Of a DNA stretch of 64,000 bases, positions 6,043-62,493 are shown piece after piece. Position 1 is the first letter of the stretch; the number at the start of each line of letters is the position of its first letter. Made by a program: the position numbers and the translations under genes. The notes under the pieces were generated by a model. It worked only from the letters and a program-made list of their open reading frames with translations. It did not search any database and was not told where the DNA came from. The stretch is from Escherichia phage sutha: the sequence record PV245934.1, one strand, 5' to 3'.

Positions 6043-6057
6043 TCTTTGACGATTTAA

Positions 6058-6073
6058 GGGACCTTCGGGTCCC
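6058..6073 (+). terminator. intrinsic terminator GGGACC-ttcg-GGTCCC with UUCG tetraloop
   Basis: Perfect hairpin followed by T-rich tract directly after gene 23 stop. Confidence 0.75.
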
Positions 6074-6090
6074 TTTAGTTGTTTTTATGG

Positions 6091-6098
6091 TATAAATA
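6091..6098 (+). promoter_or_regulatory. late promoter TATAAATA (gene 24)
   Basis: Exact TATAAATA 28 bp upstream of gene 24 ATG. Confidence 0.7.
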
Positions 6099-6125
6099 AA
6101 TCATATAAACCAAAAGGAAAGCGCA

Positions 6126-21864: not shown

Positions 21865-21895
21865 TTTATGTTCCTCATGTTATGTCAGTAAATCT

Positions 21896-21925
21896 ACTAT
21901 AACACAACACGAGGGACTTGTAAAC
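21896..21925 (-). promoter_or_regulatory. T4-type early promoter (GTTTAC -35 with downstream A/T-rich -10)
   Basis: Minus strand GTTTAC-AAGTCCCTCGTGTTGTGT-TATAGT; part of a 54-bp block repeated at 35725-35778. Confidence 0.65.
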
Positions 21926-35717: not shown

Positions 35718-35748
35718 CATAAAGTCCTCATGTTATGTCAGTAAGACT

Positions 35749-35778
35749 ACTGTAACACAACACGAGGGACTTGTAAAC
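35749..35778 (-). promoter_or_regulatory. early promoter (GTTTAC -35) within conserved 54-bp block
   Basis: Minus GTTTAC-AAGTCCCTCGTGTTGTGT-TACAGT; near-identical to block at 21872-21925. Confidence 0.65.
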
Positions 35779-37396: not shown

Positions 37397-38566
37397 TTAA
37401 AAATATTTTTTAAAACTCATCATAACTTTATCATCAACATCATTATCAATCTGTGCTACAAGGTAAGATGACAGTTCTACTTCTTGTGGCGCGGATTGAA
37501 CATTATCAGAATTAAGATATTCACGAATCCAAGGATACGGATGTTTAACCGGAGCATCAGTAATTGGGCATGGAAGACCACACTGTTTCATACGAGATAC
37601 AGTTAAGTAATCAATAAAGCTCCACATGCTATTTGTATTTAATCCAGGAACATCGCCATCTTTAAATAAATGAACTGCCCAGTCTTTTTCTTGACGGTTA
37701 ACTTCCATGAAAATATCAACTGCTTCTTGTTCACACTCTTGGGCGATTTTAACCCATTCATCACCATCAGTGCCAAGTTGAAGTTGACGAATAATATATT
37801 GGGTGCCTTTAAGGTGAAGCTGCTCATCACGTGCAATGAACTTCATAATCTTGGCATTACCTTCCATAATTTCCATGTTCTTATGGAAGTTAAAGGTACA
37901 TGCGAAAGATACATAAAAACGAATAGCTTCCAATGCGTTGATTACATGAAGGCAAAGATAAAGAGATTTCATTAGTGCCCGTTTAGTATATTCAACAACT
38001 TTGCCTAGCTCTTCTTTACGAAATCCTTCTGATAAAATTCCTTCATAATCTTCAACCGCATTCTGATATTCACGAGTCTTAACTAGAACATCATCATAAT
38101 AGCGACCAATAGATTCAGCACGTTTCATGATAGCTTTATCTAATACAATCTCATCAAATACCTTTGATGGATCAGTATAAAGATTTCGCATAATATGAGT
38201 ATATGAACGGCTGTGAATAGTTTCGCTAAAAGTCCATGTAGCAACCCATGTATCAAGACTTGGGTCTGAAATTAACGACATAAGTACAGCAGACGGCGCA
38301 CGACCCTGAATGCTATCCAAAAGTGATTGATACTTCAGGTTATTAGTAAAAATATCTTGCTGATATTGAGGAAGCTTGTTAAATTGTGCAGCATCCATCA
38401 TTAAGTTTACTTCTTCAGGACGCCAGAAAAATGATAACTGCTTTTCGGTTAAATCTTCAAAAACTTTATGGCGTTGAATATCATAACGCGCAATACCAAG
38501 ACCTGAACCGAAGAACATAGGTTCTTTTAAAACATCAACTGGATTTGTATTAAAAACTGTGCTCAT
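37397..38566 (-). CDS. nrdB: ribonucleotide reductase small subunit NrdB, uninterrupted (no intron)
   Basis: 389 aa continuous ORF MSTVFNTNPVDVLKEPMFFGSGLG...KKYF with di-iron radical signature; T4 nrdB is split by an intron, this copy is not. Confidence 0.95.
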   Translation of the reverse strand: MSTVFNTNPVDVLKEPMFFGSGLGIARYDIQRHKVFEDLTEKQLSFFWRPEEVNLMMDAAQFNKLPQYQQDIFTNNLKYQSLLDSIQGRAPSAVLMSLISDPSLDTWVATWTFSETIHSRSYTHIMRNLYTDPSKVFDEIVLDKAIMKRAESIGRYYDDVLVKTREYQNAVEDYEGILSEGFRKEELGKVVEYTKRALMKSLYLCLHVINALEAIRFYVSFACTFNFHKNMEIMEGNAKIMKFIARDEQLHLKGTQYIIRQLQLGTDGDEWVKIAQECEQEAVDIFMEVNRQEKDWAVHLFKDGDVPGLNTNSMWSFIDYLTVSRMKQCGLPCPITDAPVKHPYPWIREYLNSDNVQSAPQEVELSSYLVAQIDNDVDDKVMMSFKKYF

Positions 38567-45197: not shown

Positions 45198-45227
45198 ATA
45201 GTATCACACTACTACCCTGCTGTAAAC
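45198..45227 (-). promoter_or_regulatory. early promoter (GTTTAC -35)
   Basis: Minus GTTTAC-AGCAGGGTAGTAGTGTGA-TACTAT upstream of the 80-aa ORF. Confidence 0.5.
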
Positions 45228-45655: not shown

Positions 45656-45886
45656 TTACTGTTCAATCAATCCCATGTAAAATTCTGCGTCTTCAGAATC
45701 CATACCATCGCAGTATTCATTAGCCATAAATCGTTCAAGAACTTCTAAAGGACCTTCAATAACAATAGAAAAATTGCAATAATTGGGATCATCATGAATA
45801 CTTGTGATACTAAGTTCAGGATAACGATTACGAATAATTTCTTCAATATATTCAAAATCAACGGTGTCAATATCAACTTTAGCCAT
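45656..45886 (-). CDS. hypothetical small acidic protein
   Basis: 76 aa from [17 protein letters not shown]... with AGAGGA Shine-Dalgarno; the longer track ORF would include its own promoter. Confidence 0.55.
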
Positions 45887-45929
45887 ATTATTTTCCTCTT
45901 TAATCATCAGCAGTATTGCCGATAGTTGT

Positions 45930-45959
45930 ATAGTACCATGGAAGGACAAGGATGTAAAC
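45930..45959 (-). promoter_or_regulatory. early promoter (GTTTAC -35) within repeated cassette
   Basis: Minus GGTTTAC-18 bp-TACTAT; cassette shared with 62249-62338. Confidence 0.6.
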
Positions 45960-45990
45960 CGTTTTGTGAAAAAAATTTTGAAATAAAAAA

Positions 45991-46008
45991 GGGACCTCTA
46001 GGGTCCCC
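45991..46008. terminator. terminator GGGGACCC-ta-GGGTCCC after gene 32
   Basis: Near-perfect palindrome flanked by A-run and T-run, directly downstream of gene 32 stop. Confidence 0.7.
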
Positions 46009-46030: not shown

Positions 46031-46939
46031 TTAAAGGTCATTCAAAAGGTCATCCAAGTCCGTGTCATCAGCACTAGATGAACTGCCGGAGCTTGAGCTC
46101 ATAAAATCATCTTCAGTTTTTGTATTGAAGTCATCAACATTGAATGCATCCAAATCATCAGCAACTTTATCGGCTTTCTTAGCAGCAGTTGCAGCGGCAC
46201 CACCCATCACAGCAGTTCCCATAACTTGACTGAACTTAGTGCTCAGTTCTTCAAACGATTTGAACTTATCTTTAGAAGTCATTTCAGAAAGGTCAACCAT
46301 TTGTTCGAACAGTTCTTTCTGGAAAGATTCATCATCAATGTTTGGAATCGCAGATTGATTCAGGAATTTAGATTCATCGTAGTTACTAAAACCAGAAACT
46401 TGTTTAACTTTCAGTACAAAGTTAGCACCTTCCCACGGACAAGTTACATCAACTGGAGTTTCACCCATTTCAACATCAACCGCAATCATTGCATTGATTT
46501 TGTCCCAAATCTTTTTACCAAAACGGTATTTGAATACTTTACCTTCGTTTTCTGGAGCTTGTGGGTCTTTAACAACCAGGATATTAGCCCAATAAGAAGT
46601 TTTACGTTTCAGTTGAGAATATTCGGTTTTGTTTGTATTGTACAGGTCATTTTTACTAATGTACTGACACACCGGACAAGAGTCATAATCGCCGTGTGTA
46701 GATGAACAAGTTTCAATATACCATTTGCCATTTTTCTTGAACCCATGGTTAACAAGAATTGCAAACGGAAGTGCGTCATCTGTTTTTGCCGGCAGGAAAC
46801 GAATTACTGCTTGACCGTTACCCGCATTGTCGAGTTTCAGTTTCCACTCGCCTTTATCTTCAGAAGAAAAACCACCTTTATTGCCATTCAGTTTAGCCAT
46901 TTGTGCAGCGAGTTCAGCAGTAGATTTACGTTTAAACAT
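46031..46939 (-). CDS. 32: single-stranded DNA-binding protein gp32
   Basis: 302 aa; [22 protein letters not shown]...; zinc site [15 protein letters not shown]; acidic C-terminus [16 protein letters not shown]; matches T4 gp32 by recall. Confidence 0.97.
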
Positions 46940-47002
46940 TTTTATTTCCTTTTTAATTTAATTAACAGTTGGTGCTATGACGATGTATGACCTCATAGCT
47001 GG
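46940..47002 (-). promoter_or_regulatory. gene 32 translational operator: A/U-rich leader plus pseudoknot-forming GCUAUGA...UCAUAGC element
   Basis: Minus-strand 5' [66 protein letters not shown] read directly; matches my recollection of the T4 gene 32 autoregulatory operator. Confidence 0.65.
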
Positions 47003-47022
47003 TCAGTGAGATAATTATAATC

Positions 47023-47030
47023 TATTTATA
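47023..47030 (-). promoter_or_regulatory. late promoter TATAAATA upstream of gene 32
   Basis: Plus tatttata is minus TATAAATA, ~85 bp upstream of gene 32 ATG. Confidence 0.55.
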
Positions 47031-47038
47031 ATAAGCAA

Positions 47039-55031: not shown

Positions 55032-58000
55032 ATGGCTACTTTAAAACAAATACAATTTAAAAGAAGCAAAACTGCAGGTGCACGTCCTGCTGCTTCAGTA
55101 TTAGCCGAAGGTGAATTGGCTATAAACTTAAAAGATAGAACAATTTTTACTAAAGATGATTCAGGAAATATCATTGATTTAAGCATTTCCGCTGGCGGTA
55201 ATATCAGTGGAAATATCACTCAAACTGGCGATTATTTACAAAATGGAACATATAATCTTAATGGAAACCAGTTTGTTTATGCAGGAAAATATATTGAATT
55301 TTTACCTAAAACTGCTGGCAATGGTGCTTGGGCAAATCAACACAAAAATAAAGCTCCTATCTTTACCGATTTGAGTTCAACGACTTCTACTTCAGAATAC
55401 CATCCGCTAATTAAACAACGCTATAAAGATGGAACTTTTTCTGTTGGTACGTTAGTAAACGAAGGTAGTTTTAAAATTCAATATATCAATGAATCTGGTG
55501 ATTCAAAATATTGGACTTTTAATCGTAACGGTAGTTTTATTGTAGATAATGGCAGTATTGAAGTCCGTGCAGGTAATATTTCTGCATCAGGCAATATTAA
55601 CTCGGCAACTGGATTTGTTTCTGCACCGCGCGTCAATACAAAAAATATTAACCTGAGTTCTAAAACCTTTATACCGAATAATGACACGGGTTATGACATT
55701 GTTTCTTTACCTACTTGGATTTATAATCCACCAGCAGATGGTTCTGACCGTGATACAAACGGATTGAACTACATGCGTAAAATGCGGGCTTCAAATACTT
55801 CTAGCATTTTCCATGAAGTAGTTGACTGTCGTTCGGGAAAACCACAAGAAATTTCTTGGTGGACCGGCGTAGGACCTTCATCTTTCCAGTGGGCGTTTGA
55901 TACCTCTGGACGTATTACCGCAGGTAAATCTATTTCAGTAGGTCTTCCTGATAGTGGTACAAATGGTCGTTATCCTTTAGATTCTGCAATTTCTATTGGT
56001 ATTGCGATTGGCGATAACGATACCGGTATTAAATGGGTCCGCGATGGCGTTTATGACCTGATGGCTAACGGTATTTCATCCGCTACCATTTTGAATAATG
56101 GTATTAATAGTACTAAAAAATTGATGGTTGGTTATAGCCGTGATTCCGGCTCTACTTGGGATTTCCCAAATAACAACCAAGCAATGTTTACTGCGCGTAC
56201 CGATATTGATGGTAATAATAACGGCGATGGTCAGACTCATATTGGTTATAGCAGCAATTCTAAAATGTATCACTATTTCCGTGGCACGGGTCGTATGGCT
56301 GTCGGAATGGCTGAAGGTTTAATTGTTGAGCCGGGTATTTTAGATATTAAAACTGGGTCCAATAGAGTTGCTATTAGAGCAGATGGCACATTTGACTCAA
56401 CCCAACGTATTTCAATGCGTACTGGATTATTTTTATCAGGTGATGATAATACCAATGCTTTGTCATTTAAAGCGCCTACAGGTGTTGACGGGACAAAAAC
56501 CATTAACTGGGATGCAGGCACTCGTAATGGTCAGAATAAAAATACTGTAACCATTAAAGCGTGGGGTAACTCATTTAACTCAACTCCAGGTAATAGAGAA
56601 ACTGTATTCGAAGTTTCAGATTCACAAGGTTATTATTTCTACGCTCAACGCACTAATCCTGCGTCAGGTCAAACAGTAGGTCCGGTTAACTTTAAATTTA
56701 ACGGAACTGTCGAAACAGGCCATATCATAGGCCTTGGAAATATAAGTGCCTCCGGTACAGGTTCTTTCGGTGGCAATGTTACCATGTCTAAAGGTTTGTT
56801 TGTCCAAGGTGGTTCTTCTATTACTGGACAAGTTAAAATCGGCGGAACTGCTGATGCATTAAGAATTTGGAATGCTGAATATGGTGCTATTTTCCGTCGC
56901 TCGGAAAGTAATCTTTATATTATCCCGACTCCTAAAGGTGCTGGTGAAAGTGGTGGAATAAGTAATCTCCGCCCATTAAGTATTAGTCTTAATAATGGTA
57001 TGGTACAAATGCGCCATTCTGTTACATTAGGTGATGATGGGTTAGGCGGCAATATGGTTACTGTTGATAATGATAGTAAACTTGTCGTGGTAACTTCTAA
57101 TACCAGATTAAGCCCTAATTTCCGCATGCAAATAGGCCACTCGTCTTATATTGATGTTGAATGCACTAACTCTGTTCGCCCGGCAGGTGCTGGTTCGTTT
57201 GCTTCACAGAATAACGAAAATATTCGTGCACCGTTCTATATGAATATCGACCGTGGTGATAATAGTACTTATATTCCAATTTTGAAGCAACGTTACGTTC
57301 AAGGAGATAGTACTTATTCTATTGGTACCTTGATTTCTCAGGGAGACTTCCGCGTCCATTATCACCAGGGAACTAGCACCAATGGCGTAGATTTGGGTTG
57401 GGAATTCCGTCGCACAGGCGATTTCCGCGCGGCAGGTAAAATTATTGCCGGCGCTGCCACTCTTGGCACTGATGGTAATATTACTGGTGGTTCTGGTAAT
57501 TTTGCTAACTTAAACAGTACAATTGAATCACTTAAAACTGATATTGTTTCAAGTTATCCTATTGGAGCTCCAATTCCATGGCCTACAGATACTCCTCCTA
57601 ACGGTTACGCTATTATGGAAGGTCAGACCTTTGATAAGTCTGCATATCCAAAGCTAGCTGTTGCATATCCTAGCGGTGTTATTCCAGATATGCGCGGGCA
57701 AACTATCAAAGGTAAACCAAGTGGTCGTGCTGTTTTGAGCACAGAAGAAGATGGTGTTAAGGCTCATAGCCATAGCGCATCTGCTTCAAGTACTGACTTA
57801 GGCACTAAAACCACATCAAGCTTTGACTATGGTACGAAGAACACTAATAGTACTGGTGCTCACACTCACTCTGTAAGTGGTACAACAAGTGCTGCTGGTA
57901 ACCACGCTCATCACTTAGGTCTACTATTAGTTAACGGCGGTGCTGCTTTGTACGGTTATACAACCATTGGTAACAGTCTACCTAGAACACTTGACTGGCT

Positions 58001-61580: not shown

Positions 61581-62216
61581 TCACAGTTCAGATGCTACAG
61601 TGATTACAGCTTCAATGTTTTCTGCCGAGCGTTTAATGTCAAGATACACATTACCGTTTTTAGCGATTTTACATGACATTCCGATATCAGTAAATTTCTG
61701 AATATGATGTTCCATCATTTTGTATCCAAAAATTCGCATATTTCCATTGTTGTTAATTTCAAAATTACGAATTCCGTGAGTGCGTTTTTCTAAAATAGCG
61801 AGATAGTTACTGCGATAAGTTTCAACCTTTTTAAGAACAAATCCATTTTCATCTAAAAGTTTTAACATGAAGTCTTTATCTTCTTCCATATCAGAAGTAA
61901 TCTCACGAGCTTTACGAGTTGCTCGTTTTTTCAGCAGTTCAGGAGCATTTTCCTGTGCGTATAAAGTTGCTGCATTTGAAATAATATCCTGAGCTTCACC
62001 AGTAATGATTAATCCATCACCAGATTTCTCCACCAGGCCTTTTTTAATCAATACCCCAATATTACTATTAACTACTGCGTTACCTAAATCTGGATGCACC
62101 TCACGAACTTCTGCAGCTGTAATGAAATCTTTCTTAGCAATAGTAATTAAAATCGCAGCAGTTTTTTCATTCAGAACACCGTTAGAAGCTTTGATGATGT
62201 AAGTTACTTTAGACAT
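61581..62216 (-). CDS. motA: middle-mode transcription activator MotA
   Basis: 211 aa; MSKVTYIIKASNGVLNEKTAAILITIAKKDFITAAEVREVHPDLGNAV... matches T4 MotA by recall. Confidence 0.95.
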   Translation of the reverse strand: MSKVTYIIKASNGVLNEKTAAILITIAKKDFITAAEVREVHPDLGNAVVNSNIGVLIKKGLVEKSGDGLIITGEAQDIISNAATLYAQENAPELLKKRATRKAREITSDMEEDKDFMLKLLDENGFVLKKVETYRSNYLAILEKRTHGIRNFEINNNGNMRIFGYKMMEHHIQKFTDIGMSCKIAKNGNVYLDIKRSAENIEAVITVASEL

Positions 62217-62257
62217 TTTCTAATCTCCGTAATTCTGTATCAGTAGTTGATAGTTGT

Positions 62258-62287
62258 ATAGTACCACAGTATGCTTTGGTTGTAAAC
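62258..62287 (-). promoter_or_regulatory. early promoter for motA within repeated cassette
   Basis: Minus GTTTAC-18 bp-TACTAT; cassette shared with 45921-46008. Confidence 0.6.
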
Positions 62288-62318
62288 CGTTTTGTGAAAA
62301 AATTTTTGAAATAAAAAA

Positions 62319-62338
62319 GGGAGAGCCGAGGCTCTCCC
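62319..62338. terminator. terminator GGGAGAGCC-ga-GGCTCTCCC
   Basis: Perfect 9-bp stem with flanking A-run and T-run. Confidence 0.7.
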
Positions 62339-62343
62339 TAAAA

Positions 62344-62493
62344 TTACTGCATGAATGTGATAACTATCATGATAACACGTTGAATTCCGAACGCAAGAAG
62401 ACCTCCTGCTACGGCTGGAACAACGCCTAAACCCGCCAGTAAAATGCTACCAGATACTAATGCAGCGCTTGTAATACCTATGAATGGACTCAT
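62344..62493 (-). CDS. small hydrophobic membrane protein (52.1 position)
   Basis: 49 aa hand-found ORF MSPFIGITSAALVSGSILLAGLGVVPAVAGGLLAFGIQRVIMIVITFMQ; ATG overlaps gene 52 stop. Confidence 0.55.
   Translation of the reverse strand: MSPFIGITSAALVSGSILLAGLGVVPAVAGGLLAFGIQRVIMIVITFMQ

Follow-up and report, generated by a model that had tools for sequence, protein, structure and literature searches.

Two intergenic sites in Escherichia phage sutha (sequence record PV245934.1) carry almost the same sequence, one downstream of gene 32 and one upstream of motA, which raises the question of what the shared sequence is and how it came to be so alike at two separate loci. The stretch of DNA analysed, referred to here as the window, is 64,000 nucleotides long, and its two sites are named A and B. 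An earlier note on this DNA had read each as a terminator, an early promoter and then a gene start on the minus strand, and had suggested that such cassettes may be exchanged by recombination. The two sites are very probably composite terminator/early-promoter cassettes of the T4 group, termed promoter-early stem-loops (PeSLs), that owe their identity to selection together with ectopic recombination.

Position and anatomy of the cassettes

The window was colinear with positions 100475-165383 of T4 (100.5-165.4 kb) at 84-98% identity per aligned segment, and segD, segG and I-TevIII were absent relative to T4. More than 500 Tequatrovirus or T4-like records matched the window, which by its sequence is assigned to a T4 relative, Tequatrovirus. 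The genes flanking the two sites are:

46031-46939, minus strand, gene 32, single-stranded DNA-binding protein (stop codon 46031-46033; start inferred from T4 colinearity)
45656-45886, minus strand, frd.3, 76 aa, first gene behind the cassette A promoter (T4 Frd.3 match)
62344-62493, minus strand, motA.1, 49 aa, predicted membrane/periplasmic protein (translation matches T4 MotA.1; stop 62344-62346)
61581-62216, minus strand, motA, 211 aa, activator of middle transcription, behind cassette B (T4 MotA match)

The final 60 residues of the gene 32 product are identical to T4 gp32, and relatives annotate gene 32 at this locus. MotA shares 205 of 211 residues with T4 MotA, and the frd.3 product, which matches phrog_1764 (function unknown), shares about 62 of 75 with T4 Frd.3. 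Copy A lies within the intergenic gap from the frd.3 ATG (45886) to the gene 32 stop (46031), and copy B within that from the motA ATG (62216) to the motA.1 stop (62344). The translations and the T4 annotation agreed with the neighbours that the earlier note had named, gene 32 and motA, and gave frd.3 and motA.1 as the other two; since all four genes lie on the minus strand, its orientation and gene names were correct.

A repeat search within the 64-kb window revealed a 74-nt direct repeat of 86% identity between 45921-45994 and 62249-62322, and pairwise alignment of copies A and B gave 64 of 74 identical positions, far more than expected by chance. The alignment consists of a first segment that is identical at 18 of 18 positions (GATAGTTGTATAGTACCA), a middle segment of 15 nt with 6 matches, and a last segment of 41 nt with one mismatch (GTAAACCGTTTTGTGAAAAAA[A/T]TTTTGAAATAAAAAAGGGA) whose final GGGA forms the base of a GC-rich hairpin. 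Both the repeat and the 15-bp divergent core between identical blocks, as described previously, were borne out by these searches. When up to 3 mismatches were permitted, each conserved block occurred exactly twice in the window; the matches expected in shuffled sequence were 0.02 and 0.01, and two matches were obtained in 0 of 100 shuffles. The hairpin stems of the two copies lie outside the repeat and are unlike each other except for the GGG...CCC base.

The elements of cassette A, in the direction of transcription, are:

45990-46008, minus strand, terminator hairpin GGGGACC-CTAGA-GGTCCC(T) (terminator scan)
45960-45989, minus strand, U-tract TTTTTATTT followed by UP-like element CAAAATTTTTTTCACAAAACG (alignment, UP consensus)
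45930-45959, minus strand, early promoter core, G+TTTACA at -36 to -30 (promoter scans)
45958-45953, minus strand, -35 hexamer TTTACA (promoter scans)
45952-45936, minus strand, 17-nt spacer tccttgtccttccatgg (promoter scans)
45935-45930, minus strand, -10 hexamer TACTAT with TG ahead (promoter scans)
45887-45929, minus strand, discriminator/start region ACAACTATC and frd.3 5'UTR with Shine-Dalgarno sequence AAAGAGGA (sequence reading)

Those of cassette B are:

62318-62339, minus strand, terminator hairpin AGGGAGAGC-CUCG-GCUCUCCCU, as RNA (terminator scan)
62288-62317, minus strand, U-tract followed by UP-like element CAAAAATTTTTTCACAAAACG (alignment, UP consensus)
62258-62287, minus strand, early promoter core, G+TTTACA (promoter scans)
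62286-62281, minus strand, -35 hexamer TTTACA (promoter scans)
62280-62264, minus strand, 17-nt spacer accaaagcatactgtgg (promoter scans)
62263-62258, minus strand, -10 hexamer TACTAT with TG ahead (promoter scans)
62217-62257, minus strand, start region ACAACTATC and motA 5'UTR AACTACTGATACAGAATTACGGAGATTAGAAA with GGAG Shine-Dalgarno sequence (sequence reading)

For hairpin A the terminator scan counted 7 pairs (5 GC) and for hairpin B (AGGGAGAGC-CTCG-GCTCTCCCT as DNA, 62339-62318) 9 pairs (6 GC), with TTTTTATTTC next in each case. RNA folding of hairpin A gave -11.9 kcal/mol with z = -0.85 in a 56-nt context, which is unremarkable against shuffles, and that of hairpin B gave -18.6 kcal/mol with z = -4.7, an equal fold being reached in 0 of 200 shuffles. 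Both GC-rich hairpins directly precede UUUUUUAUUU on the transcribed strand, the arrangement of an intrinsic terminator. A terminator is annotated at the hairpin A site in Lutter and at the hairpin B site in G4498 and fPS-65; annotations of both terminator and promoter were found at the gene 32/frd.3 locus in Lutter, fPS-90 and ASO78A and at the motA.1/motA locus in fPS-65. The terminator scan found no matching plus-strand terminator at either site, and a bidirectional terminator was rejected because neither hairpin is followed by a T-run on that strand. An Rfam scan of the entire window at gathering thresholds gave 0 hits, placing the hairpins and UTRs outside any curated RNA family.

In both copies some 31 nt separate the hairpin 3' end from the -35 hexamer downstream of it, and the AT-rich stretch lying upstream of that hexamer reads TTTTTTATTTCAAAA(A/T)TTTTTTCACAAAACG. 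The tabulated anatomy gives the U-tract as TTTTTTATTT in both copies, followed by CAAAATTTTTTTCACAAAACG in A or CAAAAATTTTTTCACAAAACG in B, and the U-tract/UP block as a whole differs by one base between them. Compared with the E. coli UP consensus nnAAAWWTWTTTTnnAAAAnnn, the block of cassette A matched 13-14 of the 15 specified positions and that of cassette B 14 of 15 at the best offset. All the sequence features of T4 early (Pe) promoters are present, namely GTTTAC at -36 to -31, an A-rich stretch at -40 to -44 and TGn, the extended -10 reading TGgTACTAT in both copies. The Pe class, whose members are active without phage factors, has T, A and T at -12, -11 and -7 in the -10 region, and both copies have these bases. 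This class of T4 early promoters is reportedly described by Wilkens and Ruger and by Miller et al. 2003. The minus-strand order of terminator, early promoter and gene start was recovered by an independent consensus scan, which gave at both sites, and on the minus strand only, a hairpin and T-run followed by TTTACA-17-TACTAT with TG, and by the downstream ATGs of frd.3 and motA. Transcription is predicted to begin at A 45923 in cassette A, from the standard 7-nt distance to the -10 hexamer, and at A 62251 in cassette B, from the same usual distance; the strength of A and B is likewise a prediction. By this anatomy the divergent core falls in the promoter spacer, in its stretch that is not contacted by RNA polymerase; the identical blocks comprise the U-tract, UP element, -35, TGn/-10 and start.

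Each cassette would then act as a boundary between minus-strand transcription units. At A the rho-independent terminator would end gene 32 mRNAs and at B the transcripts of the upstream unit running from gene 52 to motA.1, and in each its U-tract would lead directly into the A/T-rich UP element. From the UP/-35/TGn/-10 sigma-70 promoter, host RNA polymerase, either unmodified or Alt-modified, would then resume immediate-early transcription, entering frd.3 at A and motA at B. The identical blocks would represent the contacts of this polymerase (UP, -35, TG/-10, discriminator and start) together with the U-tract, and the divergent 14-15 nt would be spacer. Published work has established promoter and terminator activity for T4 or RB49 relatives.

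The promoter subfamily in T4 and its relatives

A consensus scan of the complete T4 genome gave 39 GTTTAC-N17-TAnnnT sites. The 741 pairs of these promoters had a mean of 31.0 flank matches with a standard deviation of 6.4, and the T4 frd.3/motA pair, with 61 of 68 flank positions identical, ranked first at about 4.7 standard deviations above the mean. The similarity therefore exceeds the promoter consensus alone, the limit against which the earlier note had proposed to check its claim, as this highest-ranking T4 pair is orthologous to A and B. The T4 genome scan revealed the architecture AAAATTTTTTCACAAAAC-G-TTTACA-N17-TACTAT-ACAACTATC at about 7 dispersed loci, and partial members of the subfamily also occur in T4. 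The T4 loci are:

27080, imm.1
53943, nrdC.9
55384, nrdC.10 (hairpin too)
70696, e.8
146875, frd.3
163673, motA
167086, denB

On sequence grounds the A/B pair belongs to this subfamily of about 7 dispersed early promoters. Queries of 201 nt taken from the loci matched approximately 5-7 places per Tequatrovirus genome, with totals of 2468 places in 541 records and 3471 places in 612 records. Scanning IMG/VR with the exact 21-mer TTTTTTCACAAAACGGTTTAC gave 5 loci only, too few for population statements, and the pattern GTTTACA-N17-TACTATACAAC gave 33 loci, of which about 8 were unrelated chance or other-phage matches.

Other early-promoter-like sites are present in the window. Eight have a minus-strand -35 at 21924, 28572, 28964, 32452, 35777, 45226, 49258 and 59822 and share the GTTTAC, 17-nt spacing and A-rich -40 region of A and B, but have other sequences. 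A third composite of hairpin and promoter is found at 29015-28936, where the sequence upstream of the -35 is different.

Spacer alleles and the origin of the near-identity

At least three spacer alleles were found at the frd.3 promoter among phages, with nearly constant flanks. The spacer tccttgtccttccatgg is present in the window, T2 and IMG/VR locus L013 and is identical at 16 of 17 positions to the T4 e.8 spacer; agcataaagctttatgg, present in T4, ime09 and BYEP02, is identical at 17 of 17 to the T4 nrdC.10 spacer; accaaagcatactgtgg, which is the motA spacer, occurs at frd.3 in bov9_1, PinkRuby and R5505; and tccctgttcttctatgg in L027 is e.8/imm.1-like. [quoted passage not shown] The spacer of cassette B is constant in T4 and in the copies that were read directly (IMG/VR L004, L006 and L007, bov9_1 and G4498). 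Since bov9_1, also read directly at frd.3, carries the motA spacer there, its two cassettes, at frd.3 and at motA, show no difference over the approximately 80 nt that run from the U-tract to ACAACTATC.

The alleles are incongruent with the similarity of their flanks. The window and T4 differ at 10 of 14 positions of the frd.3 spacer. T4 and L003 of IMG/VR also differ at 10 of 14 spacer positions, with 0 differences in the 130 nt downstream, and T4 and BYEP02 have the same spacer and differ at 7 downstream positions. A synthetic chimera of the window frd.3 flanks and the motA spacer matched 43 natural records over its full length at 95-99% identity. Of approximately 480 records, about 304 matched the e.8-like allele, about 79 the nrdC.10-type and about 43 the motA-type at 95% identity or more over 201 nt, frequencies that are approximate as they were taken from BLAST identity bands of the 201-nt queries. 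This measure was adopted because counts from 61-nt allele-specific megablast queries, of which only exact top matches were used, were confounded by alignment of these queries to the paralogous donor loci as well. A comparable alternation of spacers was observed at the imm.1 locus. Segments beyond the spacer are also common to several loci: the initial part of the motA 5'UTR is present at the T4 imm.1, e.8 and denB promoters, and in L014 of IMG/VR, from a distant phage, a gene-32-like hairpin is found at the nrdC.10 locus.

Insertions and deletions occur at both cassettes. In IMG/VR L006 and phage G4498 an ORF of 75 aa (phrog_10955, function unknown) is interposed between cassette B and motA, with a second early promoter after it; repeat copies of the promoter 3' end and 5'UTR (23 nt exact) flank the insert, and a split match of this kind was obtained for about one-fifth of the sampled records. 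At cassette A, EO1 and CrRp10 have a deletion of about 100 bp that took away the last gene 32 codons as well as the terminator, UP element and -35, and the remnant in CrRp10 has a motA-type spacer.

The exchange by recombination proposed in the earlier note is supported by the replacement of the frd.3 spacer by paralogue spacers and by the presence or absence of the 75-aa ORF beside the motA copy. Replacements that are clustered, paralogue matches that are exact and disagreement with the flanks together bear the signature of ectopic gene conversion and, after it, ordinary recombination between phages. The sequences show movement of promoter-internal segments and adjacent small ORFs; as the hairpins of A and B are non-homologous, the whole terminator and promoter would not be one mobile unit. 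The near-identity would have two causes, the first being selection for near-optimal polymerase contacts. The second, the probable recombination mechanism, would be ectopic homologous recombination (gene conversion) among the approximately 7 paralogous early promoters, in which the identical blocks would act as homology arms and conversion would carry spacers, as well as neighbouring modules (5'UTRs or small ORFs), from locus to locus and from one co-infecting phage to another.

One alternative is pure convergence, by which independent strong early promoters would have approached the optimal polymerase-binding sequence with no recombination. The exact coincidence of the identical blocks with the polymerase-contact elements, the divergence of the uncontacted spacer and the long consensus known for T4 early promoters (PMC2988021) are what convergence would give. 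However, the other early promoters of the window and T4 have the consensus without these sequences, as the first rank of the frd.3/motA pair also indicates, and whole 17-nt spacers, which are under no known contact constraint, are exactly common to paralogous loci. Spacers have also been swapped at an orthologous locus with otherwise identical flanks, and common 5'UTR, Shine-Dalgarno and ATG segments reach past any promoter constraint. Convergence is thus largely refuted by the spacer-allele data, and is considered improbable.

Slightly less probable still is a discrete mobile element or recombinase target, by which the cassette would be moved whole by a dedicated enzyme, a site-specific recombinase or nuclease with specificity for the GGGG...CCCC stem-loop, in place of general homologous recombination. 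Some hairpins do recur across loci, as at nrdC.10 in L014, and passages of the paper by Arbiol et al. (PMC2839356) consider that a helper protein may act on this conserved stem-loop, and report the detection of PeSL mini-circles. The stems of A and B are nevertheless unlike, the similarity stops within the stem base and a few nucleotides past the start site, and the exchange tracts are promoter-internal and bounded by identical blocks, as homology-driven conversion predicts; moreover, T4 recombination requires short homology only (Singer et al. 1982, as cited in passages of PMC2839356). Neither terminal inverted repeats nor target-site duplications were found at A or B by pairwise alignment and locus comparison, and with the hairpins non-homologous the mobile-element reading was rejected. 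A recent segmental duplication, in which a single copying event was followed by mutation of the divergent core, would account for the 86% identity over 74 nt, but is the least probable of the alternatives and is contradicted by the distribution of the differences, which are clustered in one 15-nt block, unlike random mutation, with 58 of the 59 remaining positions identical, by the family of about 7 loci with positions conserved across hundreds of genomes, and by the unrelated flanks, hairpin stems included.

Selection combined with ectopic conversion is accordingly the reading retained here. A more tentative extension, which we regard as possible but rather doubtful, is that the dispersed Tequatrovirus early promoters form a concerted-evolution family in which short conversion tracts move the 14-17-nt spacers and likewise 5'UTR modules. 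The invariant UP/-35 and TGn/-10/start blocks may set the limits of these tracts, and discrete promoter alleles may segregate in the phage population. If the spacers affect promoter strength or the response to Alt/ModA-modified polymerase, such exchange would allow cheap retuning of single immediate-early genes.

A point against the retained reading is that purifying selection on polymerase contacts, if strong, could partly explain the identity of the flanking blocks without recombination.

Relation to described promoters, terminators and modules

The feature shared by A and B is the published PeSL concept and is already known in kind, and most probably these very sites have already been recorded as T4 early promoters and as the terminator of gene 32. 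Passages of Arbiol 2010 (PMC2839356) describe PeSLs as conserved sequences of about 100 bp, recombination between which shuffles ORFs and forms mini-circles; in RB49 and phi1 the promoters and terminators were followed by reporter assays and the mini-circles by inverse PCR. Comeau, Arbiol and Krisch 2014 extended the concept to the T4/PST pair, for which passages of PMC4122927 give the promoter TTTACW-N17-TAYWAT, an AT-rich upstream region, a stem-loop directly upstream of the promoter, and a Shine-Dalgarno sequence and ATG at the 3' end.

Each sequence-level property of a PeSL was tested for and found in both A and B. The promoters are TTTACA-17-TACTAT with TG, the hairpins at 46008-45990 and 62339-62318 lie upstream of them, and the cassettes are intergenic and end 3' at a Shine-Dalgarno sequence and start codon. 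Multiple copies are seen in the T4 loci and in the places matched per Tequatrovirus genome, and indels or replacements in the 75-aa ORF indel at B, the spacer replacement at A and the deletions in EO1 and CrRp10. The likeness to the PeSLs of the published passages thus extends from the terminator stem-loop, sigma-70-type early promoter, AT-rich upstream region, multiple copies, length of about 100 bp and intergenic position to the indels and replacements between close relatives and the proposed modular shuffling by recombination. Two differences from these passages are that A and B adjoin the core genes 32 and motA rather than a dense hyperplastic ORFan cluster, and that mostly spacer replacement between paralogues, with one ORF indel, was observed here, whereas the papers describe ORF insertions, deletions and mini-circles. 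Spacer-allele swapping inside promoters is absent from the passages of the PeSL papers and is only a modest addition made here.

Compared with the T4 early promoters of the Pe class, A and B have the same GTTTAC, 17-nt spacer, TGn, TAnnnT, A-rich -40 to -44 and UP-like region and the same extra conserved positions near the start, and they are orthologous to the T4 promoters at 146875 (frd.3) and 163673 (motA). There is no difference in kind, A and B being an especially uniform subfamily, and at frd.3 T4 has a different spacer allele from the window. A review of the T4 early promoters (Hinton 2010, PMC2988021) calls them 'uber' promoters of the UP/-35/TGn/-10 kind with further regions of consensus, and also treats the parts played by ADP-ribosylation of the alpha subunit by Alt and ModA; the early-promoter consensus is described in PMC1524935 as well.

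The two cassettes are a worked example of the known principle that T4-type early regions are punctuated by 'stop-then-restart' cassettes insulating transcription units. Being repeated, the cassettes provide portable homology for recombination, so that small genes and promoter segments can be swapped with regulation intact. For annotation, such repeats should be read as regulatory punctuation and not as mobile elements or assembly artefacts. The frd.3 spacer polymorphism is a small, testable addition that offers natural isogenic promoter variants, and these could reveal the contribution of the spacer to the strength of T4 early promoters and to their Alt/ModA responsiveness.

The lambdoid morons, which are insertions of promoter, ORF and terminator, resemble the cassettes in being transcription modules complete in themselves, whose addition between genes can leave the neighbours undisturbed. 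They differ in that morons arise by non-homologous insertion and have deviant GC content, whereas the linkers at A and B are homologous repeats native to the phage (PMC1524935).

A limited literature search gave nothing usable on genome-wide T4 maps of transcription start sites and terminators or on the omega-interposon account of the gene 32 terminator. In 5 of 6 T4-like genomes a terminator is conserved downstream of gene 32 (Nolan et al. 2006, PMC1524935), and the rho-independent terminator of T4 gene 32, with the motif GGGACCC, serves in vectors and engineered transposon systems (PMC4211546). Hairpin A (GGGGACCCTAGAGGTCCC) corresponds to this terminator, containing GGGACCC and lying, with its T-run, directly after gene 32. 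The two differ by one base at the junction of the 3' stem and U-tract, where the window has GGTCCC then TTTTTT and T4 has GGTCCCC then TTTTTT.

Inverted repeats and palindromes in T4 early promoters

The early promoters of T4, taken as the 39 genomic sites matching GTTTAC-N17-TAnnnT, were searched for perfect inverted repeats with one arm in the -35/-10 spacer and the other within the first ~20 bases of the transcript. Repeats of at least 6 nt, the longest being 14 nt, were present in 16 of the 39 promoters compared to 7.5% of mismatched-pair controls, and repeats of at least 7 nt in 8 of the 39 compared to 1.3% of controls. Because the repeat joins the spacer to the early transcribed bases, the predicted stem-loop straddles the -10 hexamer, similar to the RB49 subclasses of the promoter-early stem-loop (PeSL) whose stem-loop and -10 box overlap (PMC2839356). 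Promoters of this type were found in both T4 and the window:

T4 65799, 57990, 73939 and 20612: examples with a spacer/transcript-start inverted repeat
Window, minus strand, -35 at 45226, 32452, 28964 and 28572: promoters with a spacer/transcript-start inverted repeat

In the T4 scan, no inverted repeat straddling the -10 was observed in the subfamily containing cassettes A and B, the terminator hairpin and early promoter units upstream of frd.3 and motA, respectively. The T4-type spacer, agcataaagctttatgg, is located at two promoters:

T4 146851-146867: spacer of the frd.3 promoter
T4 55360-55376: spacer of the nrdC.10 promoter

Inspection of this spacer by eye revealed a perfect 14-nt palindrome, CATAAAGCTTTATG, with a HindIII site at its centre, which from its sequence represents a potential stem-loop between the -35 and -10. 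A scan of the whole 64 kb against Rfam at the gathering threshold matched zero families.

Other promoter repeats and composites in the window

The window contained a second pair of early-promoter repeats and a third terminator-plus-early-promoter composite:

21872-21925 and 35725-35778, minus strand: 54-nt repeat pair, 94% identity
29015-28936, minus strand: hairpin and T-run followed by a promoter

The two members of the pair have a common -35, spacer, -10 and 5'UTR as far as the SD, with unrelated sequence upstream. T4 has the orthologous promoters in front of alt.-3 (at 123093) and alc (at 136336). The hairpin of the composite is GAGGACTCC-TTCG-GGAGTCCTT, followed by the T-run and a promoter of the form TTTACA-17-TAGTAT with a TG; the stretch from the U-tract to the -35 is not the sequence of copies A and B. 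The T4 orthologue of this composite lies at 130310, between 30.9 and 30.8.

Rearrangements at the cassettes and differences from T4

Cassette A is altered by a deletion of ~100 bp in Escherichia phage EO1 (OQ223305) and Citrobacter phage CrRp10 (NC_054899):

Equivalent of window ~45938/45955 to 46058: deletion in EO1 and CrRp10

The deletion removes the -35, UP element, terminator and final codons of gene 32, and the gp32 ORF therefore reads on, giving an annotated length of 392 aa in CrRp10 and apparently a gp32-Frd.3 fusion. The 391 positions of the PHROG profile phrog_1764 include Frd.3 at 317-391, suggesting recurrent fusions of this kind, although they may alternatively be assembly errors rather than real fusions. 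Escherichia phage BYEP02 (OR757454) carries a 78-bp tandem duplication at the 3' end of gene 32, the duplicated unit running from the final gene 32 codons halfway into the terminator hairpin. Directly downstream, cassette A is intact with a T4-type spacer.

At cassette B, many Tequatroviruses vary in the presence or absence of a 75-aa ORF (phrog_10955) separating motA from the motA.1 terminator/promoter cassette. The ORF is absent from both the window and T4, and occurs at:

IMG/VR locus L006, 1366-1593: 75-aa ORF
Phage G4498 locus, 283-510: 75-aa ORF

Compared with T4, two homing-endonuclease genes, segD and segG, are missing from the window, as is the nrdB intron together with I-TevIII:

Window 6053-6111, 37899-37902 and 47002-47038: positions at which the window was compared with T4

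The distal tail-fibre region, at window ~55.2-58.1 kb, is highly divergent from that of T4.
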